DNA of 32,000 bases. Source: Sinorhizobium meliloti (GTDB lineage Bacteria > Pseudomonadota > Alphaproteobacteria > Rhizobiales > Rhizobiaceae). Under the pieces are notes generated by a model, which was not told where the DNA came from, ran no database searches, and saw only the letters and a program-made list of their open reading frames with translations. Both the position numbers and the translations under genes were made by a program. Shown one piece after another: positions 8,982-32,000 of the stretch (within the stretch, counting starts at the first letter, position 1; every line of letters begins with the position of its first letter). The stretch lies in NCBI RefSeq assembly GCF_017876815.1, contig NZ_JAGIOS010000003.1, positions 630,001-662,000 on the forward strand, given 5' to 3'.

Positions 8982-8984
8982 GGA

Positions 8985-9137
8985 TCAGTCCTCCTTCAAC
9001 GGGATGACAGACGCCTGAGCGGCAGCGTTCTTGGCGCCGGGGCGGAATATGAAAAAGACGACGCCGAGGAAGAACAACGTCATTGCGAGCAGTCCCCAGC
9101 TATCGGCGAAATGGCGCATGGCCGTGTACGTTTCCAT
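8985..9137 (-). CDS. fixQ: cbb3-type oxidase small subunit FixQ/CcoQ (50 aa)
   Basis: Hand translation gives METYTAMRHFADSWGLLAMTLFFLGVVFFIFRPGAKNAAAQASVIPLKED. It has a single TM and sits between fixO and fixP. It is too short for the ORF track. Confidence 0.85.
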   Translation of the reverse strand: METYTAMRHFADSWGLLAMTLFFLGVVFFIFRPGAKNAAAQASVIPLKED

Positions 9138-9149
9138 GTTGCCTCCTTC

Positions 9150-9881
9150 TCAGCGGTAGCCGGCGGCGTCGTCATAGGTGGAGAAGTCGACGAGGGTGCC
9201 GAGCATCTGGAGATAGGCGATGAGCGCATCCATCTCGCTCAGCCGCTGCGAATCGCCGTCAAAGTCGGCGAGCTTGGCTTTGGGGTAGCGTGACTCCACG
9301 CCGGAAGCATCGGCATCGGGATCCGCCTGGGCCTTTAGGTCGGCCGTCGCGTTGTCGATCATCTCATCAGTGTAGGGAACGCCGACCGCCCTGTTTGCCT
9401 CGAGGTTCATGGCAATATTCGTCACCTCGAGCGGCGTTTCCTTGAGGAAGGCATAGCTCGGCATCACAGATTCCGGCACGACCGAGCGAGGTTCGATCAT
9501 GTGCTGCACGTGCCATTCGTTGGAGTAGCGGTCGCCGACGCGGGCGAGATCCGGTCCGGTTCGCTTGGAACCCCACTGAAACGGGTGGTCGTACATCGAC
9601 TCCGCCGCCAGTGAATAGTGACCGTAGCGCTCGACCTCGTCTCGGAACGGGCGGATCATCTGGCTGTGGCAGACATAGCAGCCTTCGCGAACGTAGATGT
9701 CGCGTCCGGCGAGCTCCAGCGGTGAATACGGCCGCATGCCCTCGACCTTCTCGATGGTGTTTTCGAGATAGAAGAGTGGTGCGATTTCCACGATGCCGCC
9801 GATGGAGACGACGAGCAGCGAGCCAACGAGGAGCAACGTGGCGTTCCGTTCGAGTAGCGCATGTTTATCGAGAATGGACAT
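9150..9881 (-). CDS. fixO: cbb3-type cytochrome c oxidase subunit II, monohaem cytochrome c
   Basis: 243 aa with an N-terminal TM and a CYVCHS haem motif. It follows fixN directly. Confidence 0.95.
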
Positions 9882-9892
9882 AATCTGCCCTC

Positions 9893-11512
9893 CTATTTCG
9901 CCGGTGCCGGCAGCGGCGCGGCATCCAGGGCCGCGGCCTCATCGCGCACGCAGCCGAGGATGGTCATTGTTACGTTGAAGGCCATGAGGAGCGCGCCGGC
10001 GAGGAACAGGGCGCCGCCGGCGGCGCGCATGACGTAGTACGGGAACATCGCCGCCACCGACTCCGCAAAGGAGTAGACGAGGAAACCCTGATCATCGTAT
10101 TCGCGCCACATCAGCCCCTGCTGGATGCCCGCTACCCACATGGTGGCGGCATAGACGACGATGCCTAGGGTCGCGAGCCAAAAGTGCCAGTTGACCATTT
10201 GCAGGCTGTAAAGACGCTCCCGGTTCCAGAGCTTCGGCACCAGATAGTAGATCGCGCCGAAGGTGATCAGTCCGTTCCATCCGAGCGCGCCGGAATGGAC
10301 GTGACCGATGGTCCAGTCGGTATAGTGGCTCAGCGAATTGACGGTCTTGATCGACATCATGGGCCCCTCGAAGGTCGCCATGCCGTAGAAGGCGACGGCC
10401 ATGACCATCATGCGGACGACCGGATCCGTACGGATCTTGTCCCAGGCACCGGAGAGCGTCATCAAGCCGTTGATCATGCCGCCCCAGGAAGGCATCCAGA
10501 GCATGATGGAGAAGACCATGCCGAGCGTCTGCGCCCAATCCGGCAATGCCGTGTAGTGCAGGTGGTGGGGACCTGCCCAGATGTACATGAAGATCAGCGC
10601 CCAGAAATGGATGATCGACAACCGGTAGGAATAGACGGGGCGATTCACCTGCTTCGGGATGAAGTAGTACATCATTGCCAGAAAGCCGGCGGTCAGGAAG
10701 AAGCCGACCGCGTTGTGGCCGTACCACCATTGCGTCAGCGCGTCCTGGACGCCGGCGAAGGCCGAATAGCTCTTGGAACCCATGAACGATACCGGCACCG
10801 CCAGGTTGTTGACGATGTGCAGCATGGCGATCGTCACGATGAAGGCGAGATAGAACCAGTTCGCGACGTAGATGTGCGGCTCCTTGCGCATCAGGATCGT
10901 GCCGAGGAAGACGGCCAGATAAGCGACCCATACGATCGTCAGCCAAAGATCGACGTACCATTCCGGTTCCGCGTATTCGCGCGACTGCGTGATGCCGAGC
11001 AGGTAGCCGGTCGCTGCAAGCACGATGAAAAGCTGATAACCCCAGAAAACGAACCAGCCGAGATCTCCGCCGAAGAGGCGCGCTCGACTCGTGCGCTGAA
11101 CCACATAGAAGGACGTGGCGATCAGTGCGTTGCCGCCGAACGCGAAGATCACGGCCGACGTGTGGAGCGGCCGCATGCGGCCGAAGCTGAACCAGGGCTC
11201 CACATTGAGGTCGGGGAAGGCAAGTTGCAGGGCAACGACGACGCCTACGAGAAAGCCGACCACGCCCCAGAATACCGTGGCGATGACGCCGTACTTCACG
11301 ACCTCGTCGAAATATTCCGTCTCTCCGGCCCGGCGACCCGCGGCAGCCGGACGGAAATCAACACGGCGCAGGAGCACCAATGTGCCGCCGAGCAGCACGA
11401 AGAACAGTACCCACATGTGCGCGCCGAAAAGGCGGTCCTGGGCGAGGCCTGCTCCGACCAGCGCCAGGAAGGCGCCGACGGCAAGTACGACCATCTCGAC
11501 TGTGTGTTTCAT
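9893..11512 (-). CDS. fixN: cbb3-type cytochrome c oxidase catalytic subunit I
   Basis: 539-aa polytopic haem-copper oxidase subunit. It is the first gene of fixNOQP, with a perfect FixK box about 100 nt upstream. Confidence 0.95.
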
Positions 11513-11604
11513 GGTTGGACCCCAACTTCTTTTCTAATCGCTGACGGTGAACGCTTGCGCGCAAGCCGCCAACGTCGTTCGAGAATTGCCATAGCTTCGG
11601 CACC

Positions 11605-11618
11605 TTGATTCAGATCAA
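11605..11618 (-). promoter_or_regulatory. FixK box (anaerobox) upstream of fixN
   Basis: TTGATTCAGATCAA is a perfect match to TTGAT-N4-ATCAA. Its centre is about 100 nt upstream of the fixN ATG. Confidence 0.85.
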
Positions 11619-11770
11619 GACAATGGGAGCGTCGCCGCGCATGCCTCGGAAACCGGAGTGACCGCGACGTCGGAAACATGGCAGCCAGGCCCCTGTTCGC
11701 GGGACCGGTGACCCGGGCACATTGCGGTCTTGATGCAAGCTCCGCGCGCAGTACGCCGGATACAGCAGCG

Positions 11771-12167
11771 CTTGCTGCCCGGGCCGCTATCTCGTCCATC
11801 TCAACGCAGACGAAGATGTGGGCAGACGGCTTTGCTACAGGTTTGAGACCGCCTGGCTTCCACCAATTTGGCTTTTTTTCGCGCAAGGACCAGGCGTGTA
11901 TGCGCTCATCATGGTGGTCGTGCGCCGCCGTTGGTTCGCGGCAACGGCCAAACACGGCCGCGCTTTTCCATTGGCGGTTGCTGGCAAACTCCTCTATCTG
12001 GAGCGACATCTTTGATTGTTGCGCGTCCAATCGATCTTCTGGCCGGACATGGAAGAACAGTAGATGCAATTGCCCAAGAGCGCGTACCTGATCGGCACGA
12101 TGTAGGGCTGGCCGTCCCTGCAACAACCCAATCGCGCCAGATCTCCAGCGGCGACTATCCGTGACAT
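11771..12167 (-). pseudogene. Pyridoxamine-5'-phosphate-oxidase-like FMN-binding protein, frameshifted
   Basis: Frame 1 (12167-11994) reads MSRIVAAGDLARLGCCRDGQPYIVPIRYALLGNCIY... then stop. A second frame continues VSLQIEEFASNRQWKSAAVFGR...ERIHAWSL.EKKPNWWKPGGLKPVAKPSAHIFVCVEMDEI. No native stop remains, and the read-through produces the artefactual 252-aa ORF 11509-12267. Confidence 0.5.
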
Positions 12168-12274
12168 TCAACACAAGAAATCTCCCATACGAACATAGCT
12201 TTTCCCCTGCTCCCACCACGCCCGGTCGGCTGCTGCAACCCGGGGAGAGGGCTGAGCGCGCAACCACTGCAGGG

Positions 12275-12910
12275 TCAATCGCAGAGCGAACGCAGAGCTT
12301 CCAGCCTCACGATGTCGATCGTCCTTGCGTCCCTAAGCGCGATGACGCTGCGCGCCTTCAGTTTCGTCACCACGCGCGACACTGTTTCGATCGTCAGGCC
12401 GAGATAGTCCGCGATATCCTGTCGCGACATGGGCAAGCGTAGCTGCCTGCATCCTCCCTGACGCTCGCAAAGATCGACGAGGAATGCGGCAATCCGTTCC
12501 ACGGCACATTGCCTGCCGATCACCAGAAGATGCTGCTGAGCCCGTGCCATGCCGGTCAAGGCGAGCGCGAGAAGCTCCCGCGAACGCTCCTGCATATGCC
12601 GGCGACCGAAGACGCCCAGTGTTGTTTCCGTGATGGCTTCGGCAAAGAATGCATGGTTGGGTCCCGCTTCGAACCCGAACATTTCGCCTGGGAGATGAAA
12701 GGATACGACTTGTCGGCGTCCATCTGAAAGGAGGCGGTAGACACGCACGGCTCCGGTCGAAACCTGATAGCACTTGTCAATCAGATCACCCTGGGCATAG
12801 ATCTCGCGACCCGGCTTGTAGGTGGCGACAAGATGGGGCCCAGAAATTGGGGCCGGTCCAAGGTGTTCGGCCTCAATGGACTGTGGTTTGGCGGTTGCAG
12901 CGGCGTACAT
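12275..12910 (-). CDS. fixK: Crp/Fnr-family transcriptional activator FixK
   Basis: 211 aa, MYAAATAKPQSIEAEHLGPAPISGPHLVATYKPGREIYAQGDLIDKCYQVSTGAVRVYRLLSDGRRQVVSFHLPGEMFGFEAG..., with C-terminal HTH RQDIADYLGLTIETVSR. As I recall it, this is nearly identical to S. meliloti FixK. Confidence 0.95.
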   Translation of the reverse strand: MYAAATAKPQSIEAEHLGPAPISGPHLVATYKPGREIYAQGDLIDKCYQVSTGAVRVYRLLSDGRRQVVSFHLPGEMFGFEAGPNHAFFAEAITETTLGVFGRRHMQERSRELLALALTGMARAQQHLLVIGRQCAVERIAAFLVDLCERQGGCRQLRLPMSRQDIADYLGLTIETVSRVVTKLKARSVIALRDARTIDIVRLEALRSLCD

Positions 12911-17986: not shown

Positions 17987-19810
17987 ATAGGGGCGGCCGT
18001 TGTGACCGCGCCCCTGCCACACCACCCGGCATGCGGGTCCGCACCGGGCGGTTCGAAGAGTTGAGGTCAGGCGAGGCGGGGGATACGGAGGGCATCCATC
18101 CACCTGAGGGTTAGGACCGAATTGAGCAACATGCCGCTGTTGCGCCACCATCTGCGGCTGTTGACCGCGATCTGCCGTGCCACTTCGGGCTTGGCGCCCT
18201 TGGCAAGCAGGGCCTTGTAGGTGGTCTTGCCACGCTTCCAGTGCTTGAGCTGGATCGCGCGCACCCGGTGACGCATCCACTCCTCCAGCTCCTTGAAGAG
18301 CCTTGGAGTTTGTGCCAGCCGGAAGTAGGCTTTCCAACCCAGAACATAGACGCGCAGGCGCTCGGCCACTTCCGCCATGCTGCGCCCGCCCGAACGGCGG
18401 GTCAGTTGCCGGACGCGGCGCTTGAACGCCTTGAGCGGCTTGTCGGCCACCCTGCGCTTGACCGCGCCATCCCGGCCCCGCCAGAAGCTGAAGCCGAGGA
18501 ACTTGCGGCCAAACACACTGGTAACCGCGCTCTTGCCCTCGTTGATCGTCAGGTGCAGCCGTCCGTAAAGCCGCCGCAGAAGCGCCATGACCCGTTCGCC
18601 CGCCTTGCGGCTGCCAACGTAAACGTTGCAGTCGTCCGCATAGCGCACGAAGCAATGGCCCCGGCGTTCCAGTTCCTTATCCACCTCATCGAGCAGCACA
18701 TTGGCCAGAAGCGGCGACAGCGGCCCGCCTTGCGGCGTGCCCATCACCCGCTCCTGGACCACGCCATGGTCCATGATGCCGCTGTTCAGATAGGCCCGGA
18801 TCAGGCGGATAACCCGCTTGTCCGATACCCGTTTGCTGAGGCGGTCGATCAGGATGTCGTGGTTGACCCGGTCGAAGAACTTCTCCAGGTCGACGTCCAC
18901 GACAATCCGCCGGCCCGACTGCACGTATGACTGCGCCTCGAGGACAGCGTCATGCGCACTACGGCCCGGCCGGAAGCCGTGGCTGTGCTCGCTGAAAGCG
19001 GGATCAAGGAGCGGCTGCAGCACTTGCAGCAGCGCCTGCTGGATCAAGCGATCCGTCACCGTCGGGATGCCGAGCTCGCGCTCGCCCCCATCCGGTTCGG
19101 GATCGTCACCCGTCGCACCGGCATCGGCCGGTACGTTCCCGCCAGAACCCGTTCGCGGATGCCAGGCCACGACGTGCGCAGATGAGCCGCGGTCGCCTCG
19201 ATGGACAGACCGTCCGCACCAGCCGCGCCCTTGTTGGCCTTCACCCGTTTCCAAGCTCTTTGCAGGTTCTCGCGCGCCAGGGCCGCTTCCAGCAGCCCCG
19301 GCCCTGTGCTCTGCGCGTCACAGCGCGGGCAGGTCGCTTCATCGCTGCCCGGTTCAGACAGGGCTTCACCCTGTCTCCCCACGGACCGCCCCGCTCTCGC
19401 GGGCATCTGATGCCTGGCTTCCTGCATCGCTATGCCTCAAGCACTCCTCTTCGTTCGGTCCTTCGCCGCGGATACGGCTACTACGACCTCTGCTGACTTC
19501 TCGCTCCGGCTCGACACCGTCGCCCTTTCAGGCGCAAGGCGAGATCTCCCCGGGTAAGAACGCATTCCTTCACCGCACCACCGCCGGATCTACGCCGCCG
19601 CCCCTTGGTCACGAGAGCTTCGCGGTTCATGGCCCGCTCGCCCTGGTCGGCACCGCCTCATATCCGGTTCTTGTTCATCGGCACGCGGTTTACGCTCCAC
19701 GCTTCCTCCCCACGCTCGGTCACCCTCACGCAGTTGCGCTTCACTTCACTCGCTGTGACCAGCTCGTGGCGGGACTTCCACCCGCAGGAATGCGCCCATG
19801 CCGGGCGCAC
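17987..19810 (-). mobile_element. Bacterial group II intron (1824 nt) in the sense strand of istA
   Basis: The 5' end is GUGCGCCCGGCAUGGG. There is a domain V-like hairpin ACCGCCCGGUGCGGACCCGCAUGCCGGGUGGU and a domain VI stem AGGGGCG...CGCCCCU, with the intron ending AU. An RT/maturase ORF occupies domain IV. Removing the intron joins the istA exons in frame (...ARFVM|ADHQNL...). Confidence 0.85.
18067..19427 (-). pseudogene. Group II intron-encoded reverse transcriptase/maturase, one-base frameshift; no endonuclease domain seen
   Basis: The N-terminus LLEAALARENLQRAWKRVKANKGAAGADGLSIE...YRPMPVRRVTIP is in one frame. DGGERELGIPTVTDRLIQQALLQVL...RYADDCNVYV (the YADD motif) is in another. The break is at CCGAACCGGATGGG (19096-19097), where AAA is expected. 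The length is 1361 nt, which is not a multiple of 3. Confidence 0.85.
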
Positions 19811-21056: not shown

Positions 21057-21983
21057 CTAAGACATTTCTCCCTGAAATTCGCTGCGCGAGGCTTCCTGCA
21101 AGAGTAACTCCCGGATCCAGACATTTCCGGGATCCTTGTCGTGGAGGGCGGGCCACTGGACAGCCTCAGTGAACCAGAGGGGTGGCAGCGGATGCTTGAC
21201 GATCCGCAGGGGTATCGTTTGTTCGAAATACTTTACCAGGCGCAATGGGAGAATGGCTATACGATTGGTGCCCGGCAGCAACGGCGGAATCAAGGTAAAA
21301 CCTGGCACGACAAGTTCGACACGTCTCTTGAAGCCGTGCTCCAGCAATAGCCATTGTTCGAAGGAGGGCTTCAAGGCACGCCCGAACTGGGCTGCAACAT
21401 GCCCCATCGATATATATCTTTCGAAAGAGAGATCCCCAAGCAACTGCTCATTCGTCGGGCAGCCGACGCACACGAGTGGCTCGGCAAACAGCTTCGCTTT
21501 AGGGTGCGCACTCGACATGAACAAGTCCGGAAGAATTAGAAAATCAACATCACCGCGCCGGAGAAGCTCATAGGGATCGTCGTCTAGCGGCAGCAACTCG
21601 AAGCTGACGCCAGGAGCCTCCCGAGCCAAGCGCTCCACAACCCGCTCAAAGAATACAAGTGTCATGAAGTCCGAAAGGATGATCCTGAAACGGCGATCCG
21701 ACTGGGCTGGGTTGATCGGATCCCAAGCAATGATGGAGAGCTGAATGTGCAGTAAGGCCTCACGCACCGCAGGGGCGAGCGCTTCGGCACGCGGTGTCGG
21801 GATAAGATCGCGGCCCTGCATCGAAAACAGCTCGTCGCCAAAATAGGTGCGCAGGCGCGCGATAGCCGCGCTCATGGCCGGTTGACTGAGCTTGACCCTG
21901 CGTGCGGCGGCCGTGAGCTTGCGCTCGGTCATCAGTGCGTCGAGCGCGACGAGGAGGTTTAGATCTAGGCCCCTAAAACGCAT
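21057..21983 (-). CDS. nodD: LysR-type nodulation regulator NodD (probably the nodD2 paralogue, judged by its position next to the fix repeat)
   Basis: 308 aa, [58 protein letters not shown]... It is collinear with NodD over its full length. Confidence 0.95.
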
Positions 21984-22037: not shown

Positions 22038-22736
22038 CATTAGAGAACCCTGAAGTTAACGAAATCAAGCTTCAGTGAAGGATTCTTTCCTCATGACCTC
22101 GCTGGACTGACATTTCATCCCTCATTCAATTCATCGATCGCCGGACGGGGCCGATTTTCCTGCCAAGCAGGCAGGCGAGTCAAAGACCAGGCGTCAAGGT
22201 CATTTTTCAGTTGCTCAGGGCTCCGCTTGGACTTACCGCCACGGCCGTTGCCGACCCCCCCTTGCCGTAGAACGCGATCTAACGCTGAGCTGCCACCTTG
22301 TTTCCTTCGTTGTTTGAAGCATCTCGGTCGTTCGGACACATGCAGCAGGAGATTTCCGCTTTTACTAAGCAGCTTGCCTCGGCCGGCGCCGACGAAATCG
22401 GCCAGTGCATCGAACGCCTCAGGAGCGGCGGCATGCGGATCTCCGAAACGATCACTGCTGCAAACCCGGTCGAAGAATACCGGGAGGTGTAATGGTAGGT
22501 CGACCGCTCAAGTCGAGTGCGCCGCAAGCACGCCGGATCGAGATCGTCCAATCCCGGCACATACCCTTCACCACCTCCCGCTTCCGAGCAGGCCTTGAAG
22601 CTTCGCCGAATGACATCCTGCAACATCTCGAGGTCCAGCGTATGCGGCGTCCACGCCCCATCGATTATTCAGTTGCGGCGATCTGAGGTTGATCGACGGG
22701 CCGTCAAATGAGCTCACCGAAGAGTATCTGACGAGC

Positions 22737-22954
22737 TCATTGTGAGGCCTGGATGCGAGCGGCATAGGCCCATGGCATCAGGGCATCGATGTCTTTGGCG
22801 AGGTGGCCGTTTGCGAGGCGGGTGAAGAGGTTGCACAGATAGGCGTAGGGCTCAACGCCGTTCATTTTACAAGTGCCGATCAGGCTGGCAAACCGGGCCC
22901 AATTGCGGCCCCCTTCATCGTGCCCCGCAAAGAGCGCATTGCGGCGGTTCATGG
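22737..22954 (-). pseudogene. tnpC: IS66-family transposase TnpC, C-terminal fragment
   Basis: MNRRNALFAGHDEGGRNWARFASLIGTCKMNGVEPYAYLCNLFTRLANGHLAKDIDALMPWAY. This is the conserved IS66 TnpC tail. It continues the frame of 25542-26955 exactly. Confidence 0.9.
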
Positions 22955-22957
22955 CCA

Positions 22958-23440
22958 TTGCAAGGTCATTCTACCCATATCGGCGAATATGTGACCATTC
23001 ATTACCCACATCATCCGCTTTTTGGGAAGCGCGTGAGACGTCAGGGCGTCGATCATCGCAAAGGCGGGGCGGTCGCGCACATCGAGACGACGCCCGGTAA
23101 TGTCATTGTCATTCCGACGTGGATGCTGGATCCGATTGCCTGTGCGGGCATGGAGATTGGCGAGCCCCGTGCTTCCCTTGAAGCGCTCATTGAACTCGCC
23201 AGTCTATTGACCCCTCAAGGTGAGAGGGCACCCTCGTCAACTGCCAAAGCAGTTGACGAGGAGGTTCCAGATGAAACTGCCAACGCCAATTCCACCCGAG
23301 GGTCCGCGCCAGATGATCATGGCGTTCGACTCGGTGAAGACGCGTGGGATGAGCCCGCGCCAAAGGGAAGCCGCACTGATGGCATTGGCCATGTTGTTGA
23401 TGGAGGCGGCCTGTGTAGCGGAGAAGGAGGCGCCGCATGA
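22958..23440 (+). CDS. Hypothetical protein upstream of the recombinase (structured N-terminal ~75 aa, low-complexity tail)
   Basis: VTIHYPHHPLFGKRVRRQGVDHRKGGAVAHIETTPGNVIVIPTWMLDPIACAGMEIGEPRASLEALIELASLL. Its stop overlaps the recombinase ATG (ATGA). It has no clear SD. Its 3' half competes with ORF 23268-23450. Confidence 0.4.
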   Translation: MQGHSTHIGEYVTIHYPHHPLFGKRVRRQGVDHRKGGAVAHIETTPGNVIVIPTWMLDPIACAGMEIGEPRASLEALIELASLLTPQGERAPSSTAKAVDEEVPDETANANSTRGSAPDDHGVRLGEDAWDEPAPKGSRTDGIGHVVDGGGLCSGEGGAA

Positions 23441-23450
23441 ACGCGTTTAG
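23268..23450 (+). CDS. Hypothetical 60-aa helical protein overlapping the recombinase start
   Basis: MKLPTPIPPEGPRQMIMAFDSVKTRGMSPRQREAALMALAMLLMEAACVAEKEAPHERV. A strong SD GAGGAGG lies 8 nt upstream. It is in an alternative frame to the tail of 22958-23440. Confidence 0.45.
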   Translation, partial: QMKLPTPIPPEGPRQMIMAFDSVKTRGMSPRQREAALMALAMLLMEAACVAEKEAPHERV

Positions 23451-25512
23451 CCCTCTGCCGCCAGCGCTTCTGAAGCGTAAAGCCGTCGTCTATGTGCGAC
23501 AATCGAGCCAAAGCCAGGTCATGCAAAATCTCGAGAGCCAACGGCGCCAATACGATCTTGTGGATGCTGCGCGCCAGCACGGTTTCCGACGGGTCGAGGT
23601 GATTGATGATGACCTCGGATTGTCGGCGAGCGGCGCGGTCGCCCGTCCGGGGTTCGAACGTCTTGTCGCCTGGCTCTGCGCCGGAGACGTCGGCGCCGTT
23701 TTGTGTTTCGATGCTTCGCGTCTCGCCCGAAACGGGCGTGACTGGCATCATTTGCTCGAACTTTGCGGCCTCGTGGACGCCCGCGTCATCGACCAGGACG
23801 GCGTCTATAATCCGTGCTCTCCTAATGATCGTTTGCTTTTGGGCATGAAGGGCACGATCAGCGAGTTCGAGCTTGGCATTATTCGCGCGCGCATGCTCGA
23901 CGCTGCGCGTGCCAAGGCCAGACGCGGAGAGCTGCGCATCAGCGTTCCTATCGGTTATATCTGGTACCGCGATGCGGGCCTTGGTTTCGATCCGGATCTG
24001 CGCGTGCAGGAAGCCGTCCGTCTGATCTTCAGCCGGTTTCGAGAGCTGAGAAGCGGTCGCCAGGTACTGTTGTCGCTGACGGAAGACAAGCTTTGCTTCC
24101 CACGTCCGACGGACGGACGCAACACGACGACTTTCGACTGGACACCGATCCGATATCGCAATGTCATCTCGGTGCTAAAGAATCCGTTTTACGCTGGCGT
24201 TTATGCTTACGGCAAAAGCGAGAAGCGCACCGAGATTATCGATGGCCGCGCCCGCAAGACCTATGGCCATGGCAAACCGAAGGAGGAGTGGGAAGTTTTT
24301 CTCAAAGATCACCACGACGGTTATATCGAATGGGACGAATATGAACGCAACCAGGCGCTGCTCGCCGCCAACGCCTATGGGCAAAAGGGCGGTGCAAAAT
24401 CGGGCCGCGGTGGGCGTGCGCTGCTTTCTGGGCTCCTTTCCTGCGGTCGTTGCGGGCGGCGCCTGTGCGTCGCCTATACCGGCAAAACGCCACGTCCGGT
24501 TTACCGCTGCGAACGCCCCAATTTGATGTTAGGACTCAATCGATGTCTTGGCTTCGGCGGCCCGCGAATTGACAAAGCGGTTGCCGCGGAGCTTCTGCGC
24601 GTAGTCCAGCCGATGGCGATAGAGGCGGCGATGCAAGCTGAACACATGCAGTCTGAGGCGCGAGCTGAACGCCGCCGCGCCGCTGAACTCGACCTGCAGA
24701 AGGCGCAATATGAAGCTGCGCTCGCAGAACGACGCTACGCCGCCTGCGATCCCGACAATCGCCTGATCGCGGCAACGCTGGAGAAGAACTGGGAGGTCGC
24801 TTTAAAACGCCTGGAGGCCTGCAAGACACGCCTTGACGCCGAACAGCTCCCGGATACCCCGGCAAAGCTGCCTGATTTAGATGGCTTGGCGGAAGATCTG
24901 CAGGCCGCCTGGAATGCGCCGGGCGTCAGCACGCGGGCGCGGCAGCGCCTCGCGCGGGCGCTGATCAAGGACATCATCGCTGATGTCGACGAAGAAGCGC
25001 GCGACGTCGTCCTGACAATCCATTGGCAGGGTGGTCAGCACTCGCAACTGCGCGTCAGAAAGCCCAAGACCGGCGAACATGGTTGCAATACGTCCGAAGA
25101 CGCTCTTGAGGTCATGCGTTCCATGGCTGGAAGATGGAGCGACAGCGATATCGCAGCCACTCTCAATCGCATGGGCATACGCACAGGCTTTGGCCACACC
25201 TGGACGGCTCACCGCGTCTCTTCGATCCGCCGTGTCAACGATATTCACGCATACTTTTCTGCCGAAAAGAGCGGCAAATGGCTGACGATGACGGAGGCGG
25301 CCACCAAACTCGGCGTGACAAACCACGTCATCCGCAACCTGATCAAGGCAAAAATCCTGCCGGCCGAACAAGTCGTGCCCAGAGCGCCTTATCAGATTAA
25401 AGCCGTTGATATCGAACGCGAAGATATCATTGAAGCGATTAACAATAGACGACGGAAACGCCCATATCGCGACCCTCGGCAAATCGCCCTTCCAATAAAT
25501 TCAATTACTTAG
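23437..25512 (+). CDS. Large serine recombinase (resolvase/invertase catalytic domain + recombinase domain + zinc ribbon + coiled coil)
   Basis: 691 aa. The catalytic N-terminus is AVVYVRQSSQSQV...RPGFERL...CFDASRLARNGRDWHHLLELC. The zinc ribbon is CGRCGRRLCV...YRCERP. A long helical region follows. GAAGGAGG lies 7 nt upstream. Confidence 0.9.
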   Translation: MNAFSPLPPALLKRKAVVYVRQSSQSQVMQNLESQRRQYDLVDAARQHGFRRVEVIDDDLGLSASGAVARPGFERLVAWLCAGDVGAVLCFDASRLARNGRDWHHLLELCGLVDARVIDQDGVYNPCSPNDRLLLGMKGTISEFELGIIRARMLDAARAKARRGELRISVPIGYIWYRDAGLGFDPDLRVQEAVRLIFSRFRELRSGRQVLLSLTEDKLCFPRPTDGRNTTTFDWTPIRYRNVISVLKNPFYAGVYAYGKSEKRTEIIDGRARKTYGHGKPKEEWEVFLKDHHDGYIEWDEYERNQALLAANAYGQKGGAKSGRGGRALLSGLLSCGRCGRRLCVAYTGKTPRPVYRCERPNLMLGLNRCLGFGGPRIDKAVAAELLRVVQPMAIEAAMQAEHMQSEARAERRRAAELDLQKAQYEAALAERRYAACDPDNRLIAATLEKNWEVALKRLEACKTRLDAEQLPDTPAKLPDLDGLAEDLQAAWNAPGVSTRARQRLARALIKDIIADVDEEARDVVLTIHWQGGQHSQLRVRKPKTGEHGCNTSEDALEVMRSMAGRWSDSDIAATLNRMGIRTGFGHTWTAHRVSSIRRVNDIHAYFSAEKSGKWLTMTEAATKLGVTNHVIRNLIKAKILPAEQVVPRAPYQIKAVDIEREDIIEAINNRRRKRPYRDPRQIALPINSIT

Positions 25513-25541
25513 AAAGGGGGTGCATAATGACTCATGTCCGG

Positions 25542-26955
25542 CAATGGGGCGCAGGGCCCGTTCGGCGGCGTTGTTATCCATGGCGACGCGACCGTCTTCG
25601 AGGAATAGGCAGAATGAGTGCCAGCGGCTCAGGCCGTAACGGAAGGCGCTCGCCAGATCGCCCTTGCCCGGAATACGGGTCAGTTGCGCTTCAGCCCAGA
25701 CGCGCAAGGCTTCGACCTTTGCTGTGCTGTGCTTCTGACGAGCAGCAAGGCGGATATCGGCAGGCTGGCCTGCAATGTCGCGCTCGATGTCGTAAATCGC
25801 GCCGATACGGTCGAGAGCCTCGCGCGCGATCTCGGATTTGTTCGAGATCCAGATATCATGGAAGTCACGTCGCCAATGCGCCCAGCAGGCCGCTTCCCGG
25901 AAGCGGCCTGTGCCGTCCGCTCCTGGCTCATAAAGCTTCCCGTAGCCTTTGTAGCCGTCAGCTTGAAGGATGCCGCTTGTCTGCCTGAGGTGATGGTGGA
26001 CGTGCTCTTCCTTCCAGTCGGAAGCAAAGTAGTAGACCGTTCCCGGTGGAGCAGCGCCCGCCCAGGGACGCTGATCGCGGACATAGGTCCAGATCCTGCC
26101 CTTCTTCACGCCTTTGCCCAACCCCTTATCCCGAAGAGAACGATCGAGCACCCGGATCGGGGTGTCGTCGGCATGGAGAAGGTCACTGCTCATGACCACC
26201 GCCTCGATCCGCTCAATCAGCGGCTGGAGCACCTGCATGGCGCGACCGCACCAATCGACCAGCGTGCTGTCCGGAATGTCGGCGCCCATGCGGGCGAAGA
26301 TCTCGTTCAGGCGATACAAAGGCAGGTGATCGTCGAACTTCGAGACCAGAATGTAAGCCAGAAGCCCAGCACCTGCCATGCTGCCCGGTATCGGACGGCT
26401 CGGCGCCGGCAACTGCACCATCTTCTCGCAGCAACGGCAGGACTTCTTCAATCGGGCGACCTCGATGACCTTCATCTGCGCAGCGATCATGTCGAGGATT
26501 TCGCTGGCGTCCTCGCCGACAAGGCGCAATTCACCGCCGCAATCGGGGCAGCAGGTACCCGGATCGAGTTCTTTGCGCTCGCGCGCTGCCTTTTCCGATA
26601 CCCGCGGACGGCGGCGCATGGTCTTCTCGGGCCTGCTTGCCACAGGCGCGGCAGGCACTGCCGCATCGACCTCATCGAGCGGCTTGGTGCTGTTTTCCGC
26701 TGCGGCGATTAAAAGATCCTCCAGCGCGAGTTCCAGCTGCTGGATTTCCCGTTCGATCTTTTCCGAGGACTTGCCGAAGACCTGTTTCTTCAGCTTGGCG
26801 ATGCGCAGTCGCAGTTCCCCGATCAATTGGTCGTGCGCCTGCAACGTCGCCGACATCTTCGCGTTTTCCGCCTGCAAGGCGGCGATCATCGCCTTCAGGA
26901 AGGCCGGATCGTCGGGAAGATTTTGGCTCGCGTTTGACATCATCCTGACTACCAT
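25542..26955 (-). pseudogene. tnpC: IS66-family transposase TnpC, N-terminal 471 codons (interrupted)
   Basis: It has a leucine-zipper-like N-terminus, zinc-finger CPDCGGEL...CRCC and the DDE region ...LHADDTPIRVL...LQADGYKGY...DNNAAERALRPIA. The frame then runs into the inserted element (track ORF 25501-26955). Confidence 0.9.
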
Positions 26956-27003
26956 AGGTCAGGACGAGTATCCATAAAAACAAGCAGATTCAGTGAGATA
27001 AAA

Positions 27004-27351
27004 TCAACCGACACGCGCCGGCGGAGCGCCCCAGTTGGGCCGTCGCCAATCAATCCCTTCCCAAAGCATGGCCAGTTGCGCGGTTGTCAGCCGGGCCGTT
27101 CCATCGGCTGCTGAAGGCCATGGAAAACGCCCCCTCTCCAAAATTTTATAGTACAGGCAGAAGCCCTGGCCATCAAAATACAGGAGTTTCAAACGATCGC
27201 CCCGTCTGCCTCGAAACGCGAAGACTGCACCTCCCGTCGGCTTCTGGCGCAGCACATCCTGCGCAAGCGCAGCCAAACCTTCTACCCCTTTGCGCATGTC
27301 CGTGGCTCCGCAAGCGAGATACACTCGAACACCGGTTCCTGGTCCAATCAT
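27004..27351 (-). CDS. tnpB: IS66-family accessory protein TnpB (Orf2)
   Basis: 115 aa, VRVYLACGATDMRKGVEGLAALAQDVLRQKPTGGAVFAFRGRRGDRLKLLYFDGQGFCLYYKILERGRFPWP. Its start overlaps the tnpA stop by 4 nt. Confidence 0.9.
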   Translation of the reverse strand: MIGPGTGVRVYLACGATDMRKGVEGLAALAQDVLRQKPTGGAVFAFRGRRGDRLKLLYFDGQGFCLYYKILERGRFPWPSAADGTARLTTAQLAMLWEGIDWRRPNWGAPPARVG

Positions 27352-27722
27352 GCTGCTTCAACCGCCCGGATGAGCCGAGTGAGGACGGCGGGATCGACGC
27401 CACTGTCGAAGCGAAGGCTGCGCCCATCGTTCAACCGCAACTCGATCATTGCAGACACGCGCGCAACGTCCTCACGCACCAGCGGGGCGCCATGCATGGC
27501 GGCCATGTCTACGGGAACGAAGACCGTATCGGCCGTGGACGGCAACAAACCCTTCTTCTTCAGCTCATGCCGCCAGGCGTAAATCTGCTGCCGGCTTACA
27601 TCGTGCCGATGGGCAACCTCCGTGACCGTCGCACCGTCGAGCCCAATCGACATGACAACGTCGAGCTTCTTCGCGTCACCCCAACGCCGCCGCCGTTCCT
27701 GACCAAGAATTTCGACACGCAT
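27348..27722 (-). CDS. tnpA: IS66-family accessory protein TnpA (Orf1), HTH
   Basis: MRVEILGQERRRRWGDAKKLDVVMSIGLDGATVTEVAHRHDVSRQQIYAWRHELKK. The ATG at 27722 has GGTGAGG upstream (the track start is a GTG at 27734). Confidence 0.85.
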   Translation of the reverse strand: MRVEILGQERRRRWGDAKKLDVVMSIGLDGATVTEVAHRHDVSRQQIYAWRHELKKKGLLPSTADTVFVPVDMAAMHGAPLVREDVARVSAMIELRLNDGRSLRFDSGVDPAVLTRLIRAVEAA

Positions 27723-27821
27723 CCCATACCTCACCTAAGACACGTCGCTAACGACGTCGTTAATGACGTGTCTTAGGTCATCAAGGCGCTATCCGGCAGG
27801 CGGTGCCAATCGGGTGCTTAC

Positions 27822-27921
27822 GCTTCAAGGAAGGCAATGCCACGCAAACCGGAAGGTCAACCACCAATGCCAAGGAAAGTGCTGATTCTGCTTGAAGGCA
27901 CTAGAATGGGTACTGGTCAGC
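27822..27921 (+). repeat. Copy A of a reiterated ~70-100 bp segment (RBS + first ~18-25 codons of the ATP-grasp gene)
   Basis: GCTTCAAGGAAGGCAAT...GGAAGGTCAACCACCAATGCCAAGGAAAGTGCTGATTCTGCTTGAAGGCACTAGAATGGGTACTGGTCAGC. It is closely similar to 31491-31587 and more distantly to 30960-31030. It begins at the base immediately after the IS66 terminus. Confidence 0.8.
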
Positions 27922-29105
27922 TATACGTCCAAGCGGCGAAGCTTCTTGGATTGCACCCAATTGTCCTGTCAGCTGACCCGGCACGTTACAACTATCTTGC
28001 AACGGAAAACGTCGAGGCTATCCGTGTCGACACGGACGATCTCGACGCGCTGATCCGTGAATGCTCCCGGCTCCGGGAGACCTATGACATTGTCGGCATT
28101 ACGGGCCTTCCAGTCCCCGGCGAGGCGGTCTATGCGACCGTTGCCAAGCTCTGTCGGCATTTCGGTCTACCGGGACCAAACCCCGCATCGATTGATCAAT
28201 GCTGCGACAAATTCATCCAGCGTCAACTGCTCGCGGAGGCTGGTGTTCCCGTACCTGTCTGTCGCATGGCAACGAATGCGGCGGAGGTAGAAAGTGCTGC
28301 CGCGGAGATCGGCCTGCCAGTGATCCTGAAACCTGCCGCTGGCAACGGAAGCACCGGTGTCCGTTTGTGCCGCGATGCCGAGGAGCTAGCCGAACACACG
28401 GTTTATCTGCTGGGCGGAACGTACGAATGGCAGACTTCGCCGAGGATACTGGTCGAAGAATTCGCAGAGGGGCCCTATTTTATTGCTGATATAATGGGGA
28501 ATACTATCATTGAGATAGGCGCCGGTGATTTCGGACCCCCGCCGAATTTCGTCTATCGTGAGTACACCTATCCGGCCTCGCTGACTGATGACCAGCGGAC
28601 GCGTATCACCGATGTTTCGCTGAGCTGCTTAGGCGCTCTCGACCTTAACTGGGGACCAACGAACATTGAATTCCGGTGGACAGAGCGTGGCCTGGTTGTC
28701 ATTGAAGTCAATCCGCGTCTTGCTGGCTCGCCCGATCCTCAGCTGATTCAGCTGGCTTGCGGTGTCGATCTTGTCATGGAGCACATCAAGCTTGTCATTG
28801 GCGACGAATGCGATTTGCGCAAAAGGCATTCGCAGACTGCGTCCGCACGGTTCCTGGTTCCGGATCGAGCCGGCACCCTCGACCGTATCGATGGCGCCGA
28901 TCAGGCAGCTGGTGTACCGGGTGTCGCCGAGGTCACATGGTATATTAAGCCCCCGACGCCGATCATCATGAAAGGCGACTGCCAAGACTGTATCGGACAT
29001 GTCATCGCCGCTTCTCCAAACCCTACCCAAACCTCGGCGATACTTCAGCGTGCAGTCGACTCAATCACCTGGTCGATTACACCGTTTCCGACCATCGACG
29101 ACTAG
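27867..29105 (+). CDS. ATP-grasp domain protein (carboxylate-amine / L-amino-acid-ligase-like)
   Basis: MPRKVLILLEGTRMGTGQLYVQAAKLLGLHPIVLSAD..., LPVILKPAAGNGSTGVRLC, VVIEVNPRLAG. The ATG at 27867 is the start position conserved in repeat copy B. An alternative ATG lies at 27837. Confidence 0.85.
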   Translation: MPRKVLILLEGTRMGTGQLYVQAAKLLGLHPIVLSADPARYNYLATENVEAIRVDTDDLDALIRECSRLRETYDIVGITGLPVPGEAVYATVAKLCRHFGLPGPNPASIDQCCDKFIQRQLLAEAGVPVPVCRMATNAAEVESAAAEIGLPVILKPAAGNGSTGVRLCRDAEELAEHTVYLLGGTYEWQTSPRILVEEFAEGPYFIADIMGNTIIEIGAGDFGPPPNFVYREYTYPASLTDDQRTRITDVSLSCLGALDLNWGPTNIEFRWTERGLVVIEVNPRLAGSPDPQLIQLACGVDLVMEHIKLVIGDECDLRKRHSQTASARFLVPDRAGTLDRIDGADQAAGVPGVAEVTWYIKPPTPIIMKGDCQDCIGHVIAASPNPTQTSAILQRAVDSITWSITPFPTIDD

Positions 29106-29201
29106 GAACAATCCGTTACCTGCACCAGCGCAGGTGGACTGGGCTCCGGAATTGGGAAAAGGGGATAAGTGGGGTTCTGCGCGGCTGCGAACAGGGAGAC
29201 G

Positions 29202-29370
29202 ATGAGCAAGAAACCCGGCCGGAACCACCCCCGGGCTTTCAAGGGAGAAGTGGCCTGGTCGCCGTGAAGCGCAAGAAGACTCTGCCGAACTGGTCCAACG
29301 GTCTGATGTGCATCCCAACCGGATGAGCCAGTGGAGGGCCCAACTCCGAGGCGGCGCAGCCGGCGGTGGG
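29202..29370 (+). mobile_element. IS3-family orfA remnant, multiply frameshifted
   Basis: MSKKPGRNHPRAFKGEVA / LVAVKRKKTLPELVQRSDVHPNRMSQWRAQL spread over three frames. This resembles the IS3-family OrfA signature RNHSPAFKAKVAL...GEKTLAEL...FDVHPNQI..WK.QL. Confidence 0.55.
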
Positions 29371-29538
29371 GCATTGGGCTTATACACCTATCTGCATCGA
29401 GAGCGGCATGGCCCAGTTCCGCGTTTGCCGGCGCAGTGAATCGACGGTGGCGACTAAAAAACGCTTTACCGTCCTTCGTCACGGCTCTCCAGTACCTGAG
29501 TGCTGACTTTCCCCGGTTAGGGAAATTCCACTCTCATC

Positions 29539-30879
29539 GGTAGTGTGCTGAAGGTTCTGCAAATTCACTGAGAGAGGCGGTCATGGCAGGCTGGTGATGT
29601 TGAACGTCACCTGATTCCCTGGAAGGAACGCCACCATGACCAAGACTGAAGGTAGGACAGCCAGCGCCGCCGTCAAAGACATTTTGCTTTCGAACCCCGA
29701 TGGGCTGCGCGAGGTGATCCGCACGGTGATGCAGGAGGTGCTGGAAGCGGAGATGGACGAGGCGCTGGGAGCTGCGAAAGGCGAGCGCACGCCGGAGCGG
29801 CTCGGCTACCGTTCGGGCCACTATGGCCGCACGCTGATCACGCGGGTGGGCAAGCTCGAGCTGCGGGTGCCGCAGGATCGCTCGGGGCACTTCTCCACCG
29901 AATTGTTCGAACGCTACCAGCGCTCCGAGCGGGCGCTGGTGGCAACCTTGGCGGAGATGTATGTGCAAGGGGTGTCGACGCGGAAGGTCAAGGCGATCAC
30001 CGAGGAGCTGTGCGGCCATGCCTTCTCGGCGTCATCGATCTCGGCGATCAACAAGCGGCTGGACGAGAGCCTGAAGGCCTTTGCCGAGCGCTCGCTTCAA
30101 GAGCCGTTTGCCTACCTGATTCTCGATGCCCGTTATGAGAAGGTGCGCGAGGCCGGTGTGGTGATGAGCCAGGCGGTGTTGATCGCTGTCGGCATCGACT
30201 GGGACGGACGGCGGCAGATCCTGTCGGTCGAGATGGCCGGCCGTGAAAGCCGTTGCGCCTGGAAGGACTTCCTCGTCAGGCTGAAAGGGCGCGGTTTGAA
30301 GGGCGTCGAACTGGTGGTCTCCGACGACCATGCCGGTCTCGTCGCGGCAATTGGCGAGGTGATTCCGGAAGCTGCCTGGCAGCGCTGTTACGTGCATTTC
30401 CTCAGGAACGCCCTCGATCACCTGCCGCGCAAACATGGCGACGATTGCTTGCAGGAGCTTCGATGGCTCTATGATCGCCGCGACCTTGATGAGGCGAAGG
30501 CCGATCTCGCCGCGTGGCTGGGAAAATGGTCGGTCCGCTATCCGCGCCTGACCTCCTGGGTTGAGGAAACCATCGAGCAGACGCTGACCTTCTTTCGTCT
30601 GCCGCGCCAGCATCACAAGCACCTCAAGAGCACCAACATGCTGGAACGCCTCAACGAGGAAATCCGCCGCAGAACCTACGTCGTGCGCATCTTTCCCAAT
30701 ACCGAGAGCTGCCTACGCCTCGTCCGCGCGCTCGCCGTCGAAACCCACGAAAACTGGATGGAGGCCAATCGCTACATCAACATGGACGACCTGCGAGAGC
30801 ACAAGAAACTCGCACTCCGTCAAGCCGCATGACCAGCACGCATGACCGCCCAATTTTGCAGAACTTGACGCACACAACC
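29539..30879 (+). mobile_element. IS256-family insertion sequence (1341 bp; ISRm3-like) with an 8-bp target duplication
   Basis: The terminal inverted repeats are GGTAGTGTGCTGAAGGTTCTGCAAATT and GGTTGTGTGCGTCAAGTTCTGCAAAATT. The direct repeat CTCTCATC lies at 29531-29538 and 30880-30887. Confidence 0.9.
29636..30832 (+). CDS. IS256-family transposase
   Basis: 398 aa, ...EAEMDEALGAAKGERTPERLGYRSGHYGRTLITRVGKLELRVPQDRSGHFSTELFERYQRSE...MYVQGVSTRKV...DARYEKVRE...VVSDDHAGL... This is the mutator-type DDE signature. Confidence 0.95.
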   Translation: MTKTEGRTASAAVKDILLSNPDGLREVIRTVMQEVLEAEMDEALGAAKGERTPERLGYRSGHYGRTLITRVGKLELRVPQDRSGHFSTELFERYQRSERALVATLAEMYVQGVSTRKVKAITEELCGHAFSASSISAINKRLDESLKAFAERSLQEPFAYLILDARYEKVREAGVVMSQAVLIAVGIDWDGRRQILSVEMAGRESRCAWKDFLVRLKGRGLKGVELVVSDDHAGLVAAIGEVIPEAAWQRCYVHFLRNALDHLPRKHGDDCLQELRWLYDRRDLDEAKADLAAWLGKWSVRYPRLTSWVEETIEQTLTFFRLPRQHHKHLKSTNMLERLNEEIRRRTYVVRIFPNTESCLRLVRALAVETHENWMEANRYINMDDLREHKKLALRQAA

Positions 30880-30959
30880 CTCTCATCCATTTGTCGGCAG
30901 TGATCGCCGAAATTTCCAATCGGGGGCGCCATGACATTTCCACGGGACGAAGCGGTGAA

Positions 30960-31030
30960 CCTCAAGGAAAGGTCAACACCAATGAAACGACGAGCACTTG
31001 TGTTGGTCGAAGGATCAACGGGTAATGGCC
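30960..31030 (+). repeat. Copy B (most diverged) of the ATP-grasp 5' segment
   Basis: CCTCAAGGAAAGGTCAACACCAATGAAACGACGAGCACTTGTGTTGGTCGAAGGATCAACGGGTAATGG encodes MKRRALVLVEGSTGNG. The ATP-grasp N-terminus is MPRKVLILLEGTRMGTG. Homology is lost before the NifA UAS. Confidence 0.6.
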
Positions 31031-31098
31031 TACTAGACGTGCGCATATGCGGACCCTGGACGCGTGGCGACCAGGCATACGACATTGTCCGTCGCTTT

Positions 31099-31114
31099 TG
31101 TCGGCTTTACGACA
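31099..31114 (+). promoter_or_regulatory. NifA upstream activator sequence (TGT-N10-ACA)
   Basis: TGTCGGCTTTACGACA lies about 90 bp upstream of the -24/-12 promoter. Confidence 0.75.
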
Positions 31115-31199
31115 CAGATTGTTCCTCCAACCGTGCGGCCACTTTCCGATCTAACTCTCTGAAAAACAGCCATTAGCATTATTAGTAACTCCCTCGGCC

Positions 31200-31215
31200 T
31201 GGCACGACTTTTGCA
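31200..31215 (+). promoter_or_regulatory. Sigma-54 (-24/-12) promoter of nifH type
   Basis: TGGCACGACTTTTGCA matches TGGCAC-N5-TTGCA exactly. It is followed by a nifH-like leader and start codon. Confidence 0.85.
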
Positions 31216-31295
31216 CGATCAGCCCTGGGCGCGCATGCTGTTGCGCATTCATGTGTCGGAACAATCGAAATAGTTTAAACAACAAAGGAAGCAAG

Positions 31296-31604
31296 ATGGC
31301 AGCTCCGCGTCAGATCGCGTTCTACGGTAAGGGGGGTATCGGCAAGCCCACGCGGAAGGCTGAGCTGGTAACCGCGCCCATCGAAGATCGCAGCCTCGGC
31401 TCTCCGTCAAAAAACGAGGCGCACTTCCACAGCCGCATGAACGTCATGGCTAACATGCGCGGCGGCCACGGCTTCCGCGTTCCATCCGCAGCTTCAAGGA
31501 AGGCAATTAAACACAAATGGAAAGGTCAACCACTGCCGAAGAAAGCGCTGATTCTGCTTGAAGGCACTAAAATGGGTACTGGTCAGCCGCCAGTGGCGTC
31601 ATGA
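31296..31604 (+). CDS. Chimeric ORF: first ~17 codons of nifH fused to unrelated sequence and to copy C of the ATP-grasp 5' segment (mos ORF1-like)
   Basis: [17 protein letters not shown] (the NifH N-terminus and P-loop), then [16 protein letters not shown]..., ending [27 protein letters not shown]. It has RBS AAGGAAG. Its stop overlaps the next ATG (ATGA). Confidence 0.6.
31491..31587 (+). repeat. Copy C of the ATP-grasp 5' segment
   Basis: GCTTCAAGGAAGGCAATTAAACACAAATGGAAAGGTCAACCACTGCCGAAGAAAGCGCTGATTCTGCTTGAAGGCACTAAAATGGGTACTGGTCAGC. By eye it is about 85% identical to 27822-27921. Confidence 0.8.
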
Positions 31605-31798
31605 TCAGCGACTCCTCCGACCACCGCTTCGATGCAATGCCGTTTGGCGGTTTCAAATATGACGGCATGGACCGCGAGGGCGTCCGATTTGCCTCTGAGG
31701 ACATGACGCAGCCGAAGGTGGTGTGCATCAACCGCATGAAAACACAGAGCCACGCCTGCTCAAATCCATCCACAACTCAAGGGGCAAAGAATGTTTGA
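31601..31798 (+). pseudogene. Aldehyde dehydrogenase C-terminal remnant kept as a short coupled ORF
   Basis: [39 protein letters not shown] matches the ALDH C-terminal PFGG-K-SG-GRE ... E-K motif. Only about 40 homologous codons are present. Its stop overlaps the next start. Confidence 0.6.
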
Positions 31799-32000
31799 GG
31801 GTTCGATTACCGCGCTTGTCACGCCTTTTGCTGATGATCGCATCGATGAGGTTGCATTGCGCGACCTCGTCGAGTGGCAGATCGAAGAGGGATCCTTCGG
31901 TCTCGTTCCATGCGGGACAACAGGGGAAAGCCCGACGCTCAGCAAATCCGAGCATGAGCAGGTGGTCGAGATCACGATCAAAACCGCAAACGGGCGTGTG
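31791..32000 (+). CDS. mosA: 4-hydroxy-tetrahydrodipicolinate synthase (DapA) family protein, N-terminal part; MosA-like by context (partial, runs off the window)
   Basis: [70 protein letters not shown]. The DapA signature GTTGE is present. RBS AAGGGG. It lies downstream of the nifH-type promoter mosaic. Confidence 0.7.

Follow-up and report, generated by a model that had tools for sequence, protein, structure and literature searches.

The window (the whole stretch of 32,000 nucleotides analysed here) ends in a nifH-derived promoter cassette, a 102-aa mosaic leader ORF (ORF1), the remnant of an aldehyde dehydrogenase (ALDH) gene and the start of mosA, a gene of the DapA/dihydrodipicolinate synthase (DHDPS) type. 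An ATP-grasp gene and an insertion sequence lie upstream. The features are as follows.

27837-29105, + strand: ATP-grasp (L-amino-acid-ligase-like) gene with Pfam domains CPSase_L_D2, LAL_C2 and ATP-grasp_4; donor type for the 3' part of ORF1
29539-30879, + strand: insertion sequence of the IS256/Mutator family (Transposase_mut, E 1.6e-163), downstream of the ATP-grasp gene and upstream of the mos cassette
31058-31352, + strand: nifH-homologous block of upstream region, leader and 19 codons (BLAST, 84.8% to strain 1021 nifH over 31059-31352)
31099-31114, + strand: NifA upstream activator sequence TGT-N10-ACA, TGTCGGCTTTACGACA, 101 bp before the -24 element
31200-31215, + strand: sigma-54 (RpoN) -24/-12 promoter TGGCAC-N5-TTGCA, TGGCACGACTTTTGCA, a perfect consensus match
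31216-31295, + strand: nifH-type 5' leader with 2 mismatches to RU11/001 nifH
31296-31604, + strand: ORF1, made of NifH codons 1-19, segment B and an ATP-grasp N-terminal fragment in a single frame; 102 aa, ending in ATGA (31601-31604)
31353-31490, + strand: segment B, ~90% to ml56 (L002, 6877-7392) and to RU11 (L003, 3146-3571)
31491-31587, + strand: copy of the ATP-grasp ribosome-binding region and first ~28 codons (direct repeats D1 and D2), in frame with ORF1
31588-31593, + strand: recombination junction between ATP-grasp-derived and ALDH-derived DNA, the alignments ending and starting on either side
31601-31798, + strand: 65-codon ORF, the 3' remnant of an ALDH gene that lacks its original stop and reads on for 22 codons into mosA
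31792-32000, + strand: mosA, first 70 codons, assigned by orthology to SM11 and RU11/001; the gene continues past the window

RU11/001 (pSymA) and SM11 (pSmeSM11c) match the last 9 kb of the window (22951-32000) at 99.9% identity. No plasmid record was collinear with the whole window, which alone has the junction at 22641-22951. The region has the make-up usual for a symbiosis plasmid, with a fixNOQP copy, a fixK-like gene, nodD2, IS21, IS66 and IS256 elements and a group II intron. The IS256-family element has an 8-bp target duplication (CTCTCATC), is missing from ml56 and leaves the promoter untouched.

We compared the cassette with nifH. The first-pass annotation, made from the letters alone, had claimed a TGT-N10-ACA NifA site at 31099-31114, a perfect TGGCAC-N5-TTGCA promoter at 31200-31215, and a nifH leader followed by 17 nifH codons. 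Both motifs are present as described. The promoter is a perfect match, with GG at -24 and GC at -12, and the NifA site falls inside the ~80-150 bp range upstream of it; TGTCGGCTTTACGACA aligns with the nifH site TGTCGGCTTAGCGACA. The homology of the leader and coding start was also borne out, but it extends to codon 19 (57 bp), with Leu4 changed to Pro and Ser18 changed to Pro. The proposed alignment to nifH gave high identity over 31200-31352, with 149/153 positions identical in RU11/001 nifH and 148/153 in strain 1021 nifH, where as in the window the distance from the -24 element to the ATG is 96 nt. An AGGA ribosome-binding site (31286-31289) lies 7-10 nt before the ATG at 31296. The sequence upstream is more diverged from nifH (~72-80% identity over 31059-31199; 103/143 positions by global alignment from the NifA site to the -24 element). 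Across nine aligned paralogous copies of the cassette the NifA site is retained in 9/9 and the -24/-12 element is invariant in 9/9, nifH included; these copies precede nifH, a second 1021 copy, two ATP-grasp genes, an amidase gene and three mos loci. The S. meliloti nifH (P1) promoter and paralogous copies such as P2 (fixABCX) are said to have been described by Better et al. in 1983. Like nifH (P1), the mos cassette has its NifA site ~100 bp upstream, an identical -24/-12 element and a near-identical leader and ribosome-binding site; unlike nifH (P1), it would drive non-nif genes, and its coding sequence departs from nifH after codon 19. The nifH gene of RU11/001 is absent from the 100 kb around its mos locus and was located elsewhere by a search with the 1021 gene. 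No RNA family was found in the leader with Rfam.

ORF1 is 90% identical over 100% of its length to Swiss-Prot entry Q07602 ("Uncharacterized protein in mosA 5'region"), both proteins having 102 aa, and the published ORF1 is already of three-part make-up. We sought donors for the parts that follow the NifH codons. The copy of the ATP-grasp gene 5' segment that had been claimed for ORF1 is real, and lies at 31491-31587, with 86-92% identity to the 5' end of the ATP-grasp gene at 27822-27921 (86% over 100 bp). A search of the 50 kb of nif-fix DNA in strain 1021 (word size 9) returned nothing for segment B, whose only other occurrence is in the leader of the cassette copy that precedes a second ATP-grasp gene. 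The entire stretch 31076-31587 is ~90% identical to that cassette (ml56, L002, 6877-7392), of which the RU11/001 copy is interrupted by an inserted element at L003 3571. In the uninterrupted form of this cassette a single reading frame runs from the nifH ATG through segment B into the ATP-grasp gene, and the mos ORF1 thus corresponds to the first ~95 codons of a NifH'-ATP-grasp leader. The cassette of the second ATP-grasp gene, found in S. meliloti pSymA accessory regions, lies in tandem ~3.7 kb upstream and shares segment B and the ATP-grasp start with mos. However, its ORF runs on to a full enzyme, whereas the mos ORF breaks off after ~28 codons of ATP-grasp sequence and continues into the ALDH stump. 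We found no literature on this ATP-grasp cluster. The claim that nifH had been recruited to drive the operon therefore stands as to the derivation of the cassette; its immediate donor, to judge from these alignments, was probably an existing nifH-type cassette before the adjacent ATP-grasp gene and not nifH itself. A patch of ORF1 at ~31360-31380 matches the neighbouring ATP-grasp cassette and not other mos alleles, which points to gene conversion between the tandem copies.

Past the junction, the DNA from 31594 on is 88.7% identical to the end of an ALDH gene (last ~160 bp), the spacer and the start of dapA on R. leguminosarum plasmid pRLN3, where the ALDH gene is intact (472 aa). The 65-codon ORF had been described as retaining only the C-terminal motif of an ALDH and as overlapping the start of a DapA-family gene. 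Both descriptions agree with our results: the ORF matches positions 424-461 of the 461 of the Pfam Aldedh profile (PF00171; E 0.004, 16.1 bits, below the cut-off of 23) and has a stronger NCBIfam aldehyde dehydrogenase match (5e-12), which together with the DNA match to the intact junction identify it as an ALDH end, and it overlaps the mosA ATG (31792) by 7 nt. It is visibly decayed, with the catalytic ALDH motif GSMGREG changed to DGMDREG, and a mutated ALDH stop codon lets its frame extend into mosA. Its ATG corresponds to the Met codon within the ALDH motif GGVMIND (Val-Met-Ile). This bears on the "preserved translational coupling" noted in the first-pass annotation: the ATGA and the overlap are both there, and the ATGA may allow translational coupling, but it is inherited ALDH sequence read in two frames. 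We considered conserved coupling as a sign of function and rejected it, because the ATGA comes from the ALDH gene and the alleles are too similar for a test of selection.

The R. leguminosarum ALDH-dapA pair resembles mos at the protein level as well, with MosA clustering with those DapA proteins at >90% identity. In contrast to mos, the pair has no nifH cassette; mos keeps only the last ~43 ALDH codons, without their stop. The pRLN3 cluster consists of genes for homoserine dehydrogenase, ALDH, dapA and aspartate ammonia-lyase, and may resemble the cluster for homoserine catabolism of Vanderlinde et al. 2014 (cited in PMC10228743).

The full mosA product was examined in SM11 and RU11/001, the 99.9% identical genomes. 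The protein of 292 aa is identical at 289/292 positions to PDB 2VC6, which we take to be MosA of strain L5-30 (Phenix et al. 2008, cited in PMC6668481). The RU11/001 protein scores 305.8 bits against PF00701 and 333.7 bits against TIGR00674 (cut-off 206), above the cut-off of each model. The MosA of complete loci carries H24 and I127, and that of the SM11/RU11 allele R24 and V127; the window itself encodes R24.

From these data we conclude that the sequence at 31058-32000 very probably belongs to a truncated allele of the rhizopine-synthesis (mos) locus of S. meliloti and forms its 5' end. The mosaic of nifH and mos is already known, having been published for strain L5-30 in 1988 and 1993. Murphy et al. 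reportedly described the L5-30 locus as ORF1-mosABC in those two papers (PNAS 85:9133 and J Bacteriol 175:5193), and the abstract of the second is said to mention homologies to nifH, fixA, fixU and nifT in mos. In the genomes we compared, fixA 5' sequence recurs in the spacer that separates mosA from mosB, and mosB opens with sequence matching the fixU/nifT region of strain 1021, in line with the homologies attributed to the 1993 paper. The earlier suggestion that this is the mos locus is thus upheld by the likeness of ORF1 to Q07602 and of the DapA gene to 2VC6, by the gene with NifT/FixU and DegT domains after mosA, and by the fixA-derived spacer. The locus has since been extended to mosDEF (Geddes et al. 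2019; PMC6668481), and rhizopine synthesis is NifA-controlled (PMC6668481).

Both S. kummerowiae CIP 108026 and the KH35c strain of S. meliloti have a complete locus, with 96% identity across window positions 31076-32000 and 97.8% identity to RU11/001 over the 2.9 kb in common. Its order is ORF1, mosA, mosB (520 aa), mosC, mosD, mosE and mosF. The encoded domains are NifT/FixU and DegT (mosB), MFS (mosC), Gluconate_2-dh3, gluconate 2-dehydrogenase subunit 3 (mosD), GMC oxidoreductase (mosE) and cytochrome c (mosF). The locus in the window is like that of L5-30 in its nifH-derived promoter, leader and 57 bp of coding sequence, its 102-aa ORF1, its mosA protein (99% identical), its fixA-derived spacer and a mosB that opens with a NifT/FixU domain. 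It differs in four respects: ORF1 bears the patch apparently acquired by conversion from the ATP-grasp cassette nearby, the NifA site has an IS256-type element ~215 bp upstream of it, and, judging by the closest genomes, mosB is broken, and dgcN and unrelated genes replace mosC and mosDEF. What the present analysis adds to the published locus is modest, namely the donors for two previously unassigned pieces of ORF1 and for the stump before mosA, and the truncation of this allele.

Since the window stops at mosA codon 70, the truncation was read from the genomes that are 99.9% identical over the last 9 kb. The first-pass annotation had proposed a look for mosB and mosC beyond the window and would have taken their absence as a refutation; the outcome goes half against it. 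In RU11/001 and SM11 a mosB-like gene does follow mosA, starting with NifT/FixU and DegT domains, but it carries a 5-bp frameshift deletion and loses homology to complete mosB at ~codon 307 of 520 (L003 ~15110; DegT profile position ~187 of 360); dgcN follows directly and mosC is absent. The assembly collection has the exact ORF1 protein of the window in 46 blocks. In each of the ten contigs examined (10/10) the order is ORF1, 65-aa ORF, DHDPS, NifT+DegT, DegT fragment, DUF1611/dgcN and pyridoxal kinase, and 0/10 carry an MFS transporter gene (mosC) or dehydrogenase genes (mosDEF). Searched at the protein level, the mosB' fragment matched only aminotransferase clusters that were unnamed or generic, and S. 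kummerowiae MosB and MosC had no exact match in the protein collection. On this gene content in near-identical genomes, the allele would be a relic of a mos locus and not a working rhizopine pathway. Mutants in mosB and mosE make no rhizopine (Geddes et al. 2019; PMC6668481). Because both genes are needed, and the truncated allele has a broken mosB and lacks mosDEF, strains carrying it should make no rhizopine. We found no literature on the truncated allele in SM11.

The truncated allele could nevertheless be expressed. From the 97% identity to nifH and the published work on L5-30, we infer that the genes downstream of the cassette would be under NifA/RpoN control and transcribed in nitrogen-fixing bacteroids. 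NifA/RpoN-dependent transcription is predicted to start near 31226 and to read through into mosA, mosB' and dgcN; the stretch from the promoter to dgcN showed no terminator-like site. In nodules the promoter probably drives mosA, with mosB' and dgcN by read-through.

Such expression raises an alternative reading, that the truncated allele is a maintained NifA-driven module supplying bacteroids with MosA as a second dihydrodipicolinate synthase, perhaps together with DgcN, independently of rhizopine. In its favour, mosA is intact in 15/15 loci examined, an identical MosA protein occurs on 168 contigs, and the promoter is intact in 7/10 examined contigs bearing the exact ORF1 of the window. In addition, a role for mosA in rhizopine synthesis has been questioned, and the gene is missing from many rhizopine loci (PMC6668481). 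However, in indel-free alignments the truncated alleles show no more than 0-35 mismatches per 2.8 kb. This near-identity means that the truncation is recent, and that intact mosA cannot serve as evidence of selection. Moreover, the related genomes ml56, L010, L011 and L016 lack window positions 31152-31294 through a 143-bp deletion that removes the promoter and leader and keeps the genes, so that expression is dispensable at least in those four genomes. We therefore consider a maintained module unlikely, and we are more doubtful still of the specific proposal that the ORF1-mosA-mosB'-dgcN allele, which is common in S. meliloti field strains, is kept for a NifA-driven role of its own that MosA, a genuine dihydrodipicolinate synthase, would have in bacteroids.

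A complete, working mosABCDEF operon just past the window, as in L5-30, would also fit the orthology of the cassette, ORF1 and mosA to the complete loci. Against this, all 10 of the 10 examined contigs with an identical ORF1 have a frameshifted and truncated mosB followed by dgcN. The complete loci are also distinguishable from the window allele, in ORF1 (88-91% identity) and in MosA, where they have H24 and I127 and the window has R24. It is very unlikely that a complete operon follows.

We also asked whether ORF1 might be a functional small protein, a chimera of NifH P-loop and ATP-grasp sequence. Its frame is open at 101-102 codons in all alleles seen, and the 3-bp deletion in KH35c is in-frame. 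However, no domain in ORF1 exceeded threshold in Pfam or NCBIfam: residues 5-27 align with positions 1-23 of the 271 of Fer4_NifH (PF00142) at 17.7 bits, below the cut-off of 25, and the Walker A serine is replaced by proline. Compared with the S. kummerowiae copy, ORF1 differs at 20/309 nt, with 9 nonsynonymous and 7 synonymous codons, and mosA at 4/879 nt; ORF1 is thus 13-fold more diverged (6.5% versus 0.5%), with nonsynonymous exceeding synonymous changes. Part of its sequence was also apparently overwritten by conversion from the neighbouring copy. The 1993 abstract of Murphy et al. reportedly states that the ORF1 product was undetected in nodules and that an ORF1 frameshift did not abolish rhizopine synthesis. 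A functional ORF1 protein is accordingly highly improbable, and ORF1 is most likely a translated or untranslated leader and not an enzyme.

By themselves the promoter motifs are not significant, the sigma-54 motif having a single match in the window even at 1 mismatch (1 versus 0.72 expected) and TGT-N10-ACA having 4 sites versus 3.4 expected; the reality of the observation rests on homology. The notion that such chance-frequency motifs mark unregulated junk between insertion sequences has next to no probability, and is already refuted by the 97% identity over 153 bp to resident-type nifH and the conservation of the block in nine paralogous copies.

The truncated mos allele is best explained as follows. 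A duplicated nifH regulatory cassette, comprising NifA site, sigma-54 promoter, leader, ribosome-binding site and the first 57 bp of nifH, would place the genes downstream under NifA/RpoN control in bacteroids. Translation would begin at the nifH ATG and proceed through the 102-codon patchwork of ORF1, beyond which lie the dead 3' stump of the ALDH gene and then an intact mosA of the dihydrodipicolinate-synthase type. The mosaic probably formed by recombination among symbiosis-plasmid repeats, in which the leader of the ATP-grasp gene next to it would have supplied a copy of the cassette, segment B and the ATP-grasp 5' end, which was joined to an ALDH-dapA pair resembling the intact pair on the R. 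leguminosarum plasmid. In this lineage the locus would then end within mosB, with the 5-bp deletion and the loss of homology at ~codon 307, and dgcN would come next.

Regulatory capture has a textbook example in the nifH-mos fusion, in which a biosynthetic locus has come under a copied nitrogenase promoter together with its leader and first codons; what the mos locus gained by it is nodule-specific expression. If MosA did have a NifA-driven role in bacteroids, this would explain the purpose of mosA, whose part in rhizopine synthesis is questioned. SM11 and RU11/001 are well-used strains that carry only a broken mos locus, which calls for caution in work on rhizopine signalling and wherever strains are scored as "mos-positive" by mosA or ORF1 alone.

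In S. kummerowiae, an inverted 2.4-kb duplicate of the entire nifH-fixA intergenic region (locus L007, 9440-11825) precedes the complete mos (rhizopine-synthesis) locus. The duplicate shows 95% identity to this region of S. meliloti strain 1021 and extends over 36 bp at the start of nifH and approximately 130 bp of fixA. Another nifH-type cassette, with 91% identity to window positions 31076-31348, directly precedes an amidase-family gene in S. meliloti RU11/001 (locus L005, 26049-27783). Within the window, a degenerate copy covering the nifH leader and initial codons (22248-22342, minus strand) is located upstream of a nodD2-type LysR gene (21057-21983, minus strand). This copy shares 84% identity with 31250-31345, is interrupted by an in-frame stop and lacks a -24/-12 element.

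The mos alleles of S. meliloti ml56 (L002, 9171-9273) and of three related genomes (L010, L011 and L016) lack window positions 31152-31294. This 143-bp deletion takes out the sigma-54 promoter and leader, and leaves both ORF1 and mosA intact. Just 5' of the mos cassette, at approximately 30968-31040, the ribosome-binding site and 5' coding region of the ATP-grasp gene recur in a third copy that has strongly diverged, which suggests nested partial duplications.

The window carries the following other features.

8118-12910, minus strand, fixNOQP-type cbb3 oxidase gene set and Crp/FixK-type regulator gene
18067-19254, minus strand, reverse transcriptase/maturase ORF of a group II intron
19458-19729, minus strand, group II intron RNA domains (Rfam)
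23437-25512, large serine recombinase
25501-27734, minus strand, IS66 element
27837-29105, ATP-grasp gene (accessory cluster next to mos in ml56, L002 3186-8576, and in RU11/001, L003 16-3571)
29539-30879, IS256/Mutator-family insertion sequence, with 8-bp target duplication CTCTCATC

The recombinase and the IS66 element lie within a block inserted at 22951-27821, which separates the ATP-grasp gene from its own nifH-type cassette, cut at 27822. Strain ml56 does not have the IS256/Mutator-family element at the corresponding site. The junction at 22641-22951 had no match in any plasmid record, and the sequences flanking it match segments located approximately 60 kb apart in RU11/001. The source strain is rearranged here in comparison with RU11/001 and SM11.

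The S. meliloti accessory region adjoining mos contains two paralogous ATP-grasp (L-amino-acid-ligase-like) genes, both with a copy of the nifH-type cassette upstream, and a lysine-2,3-aminomutase-like radical SAM gene. A literature search for such a cluster next to mos found nothing. Its product could be an uncharacterised nodule-specific compound.
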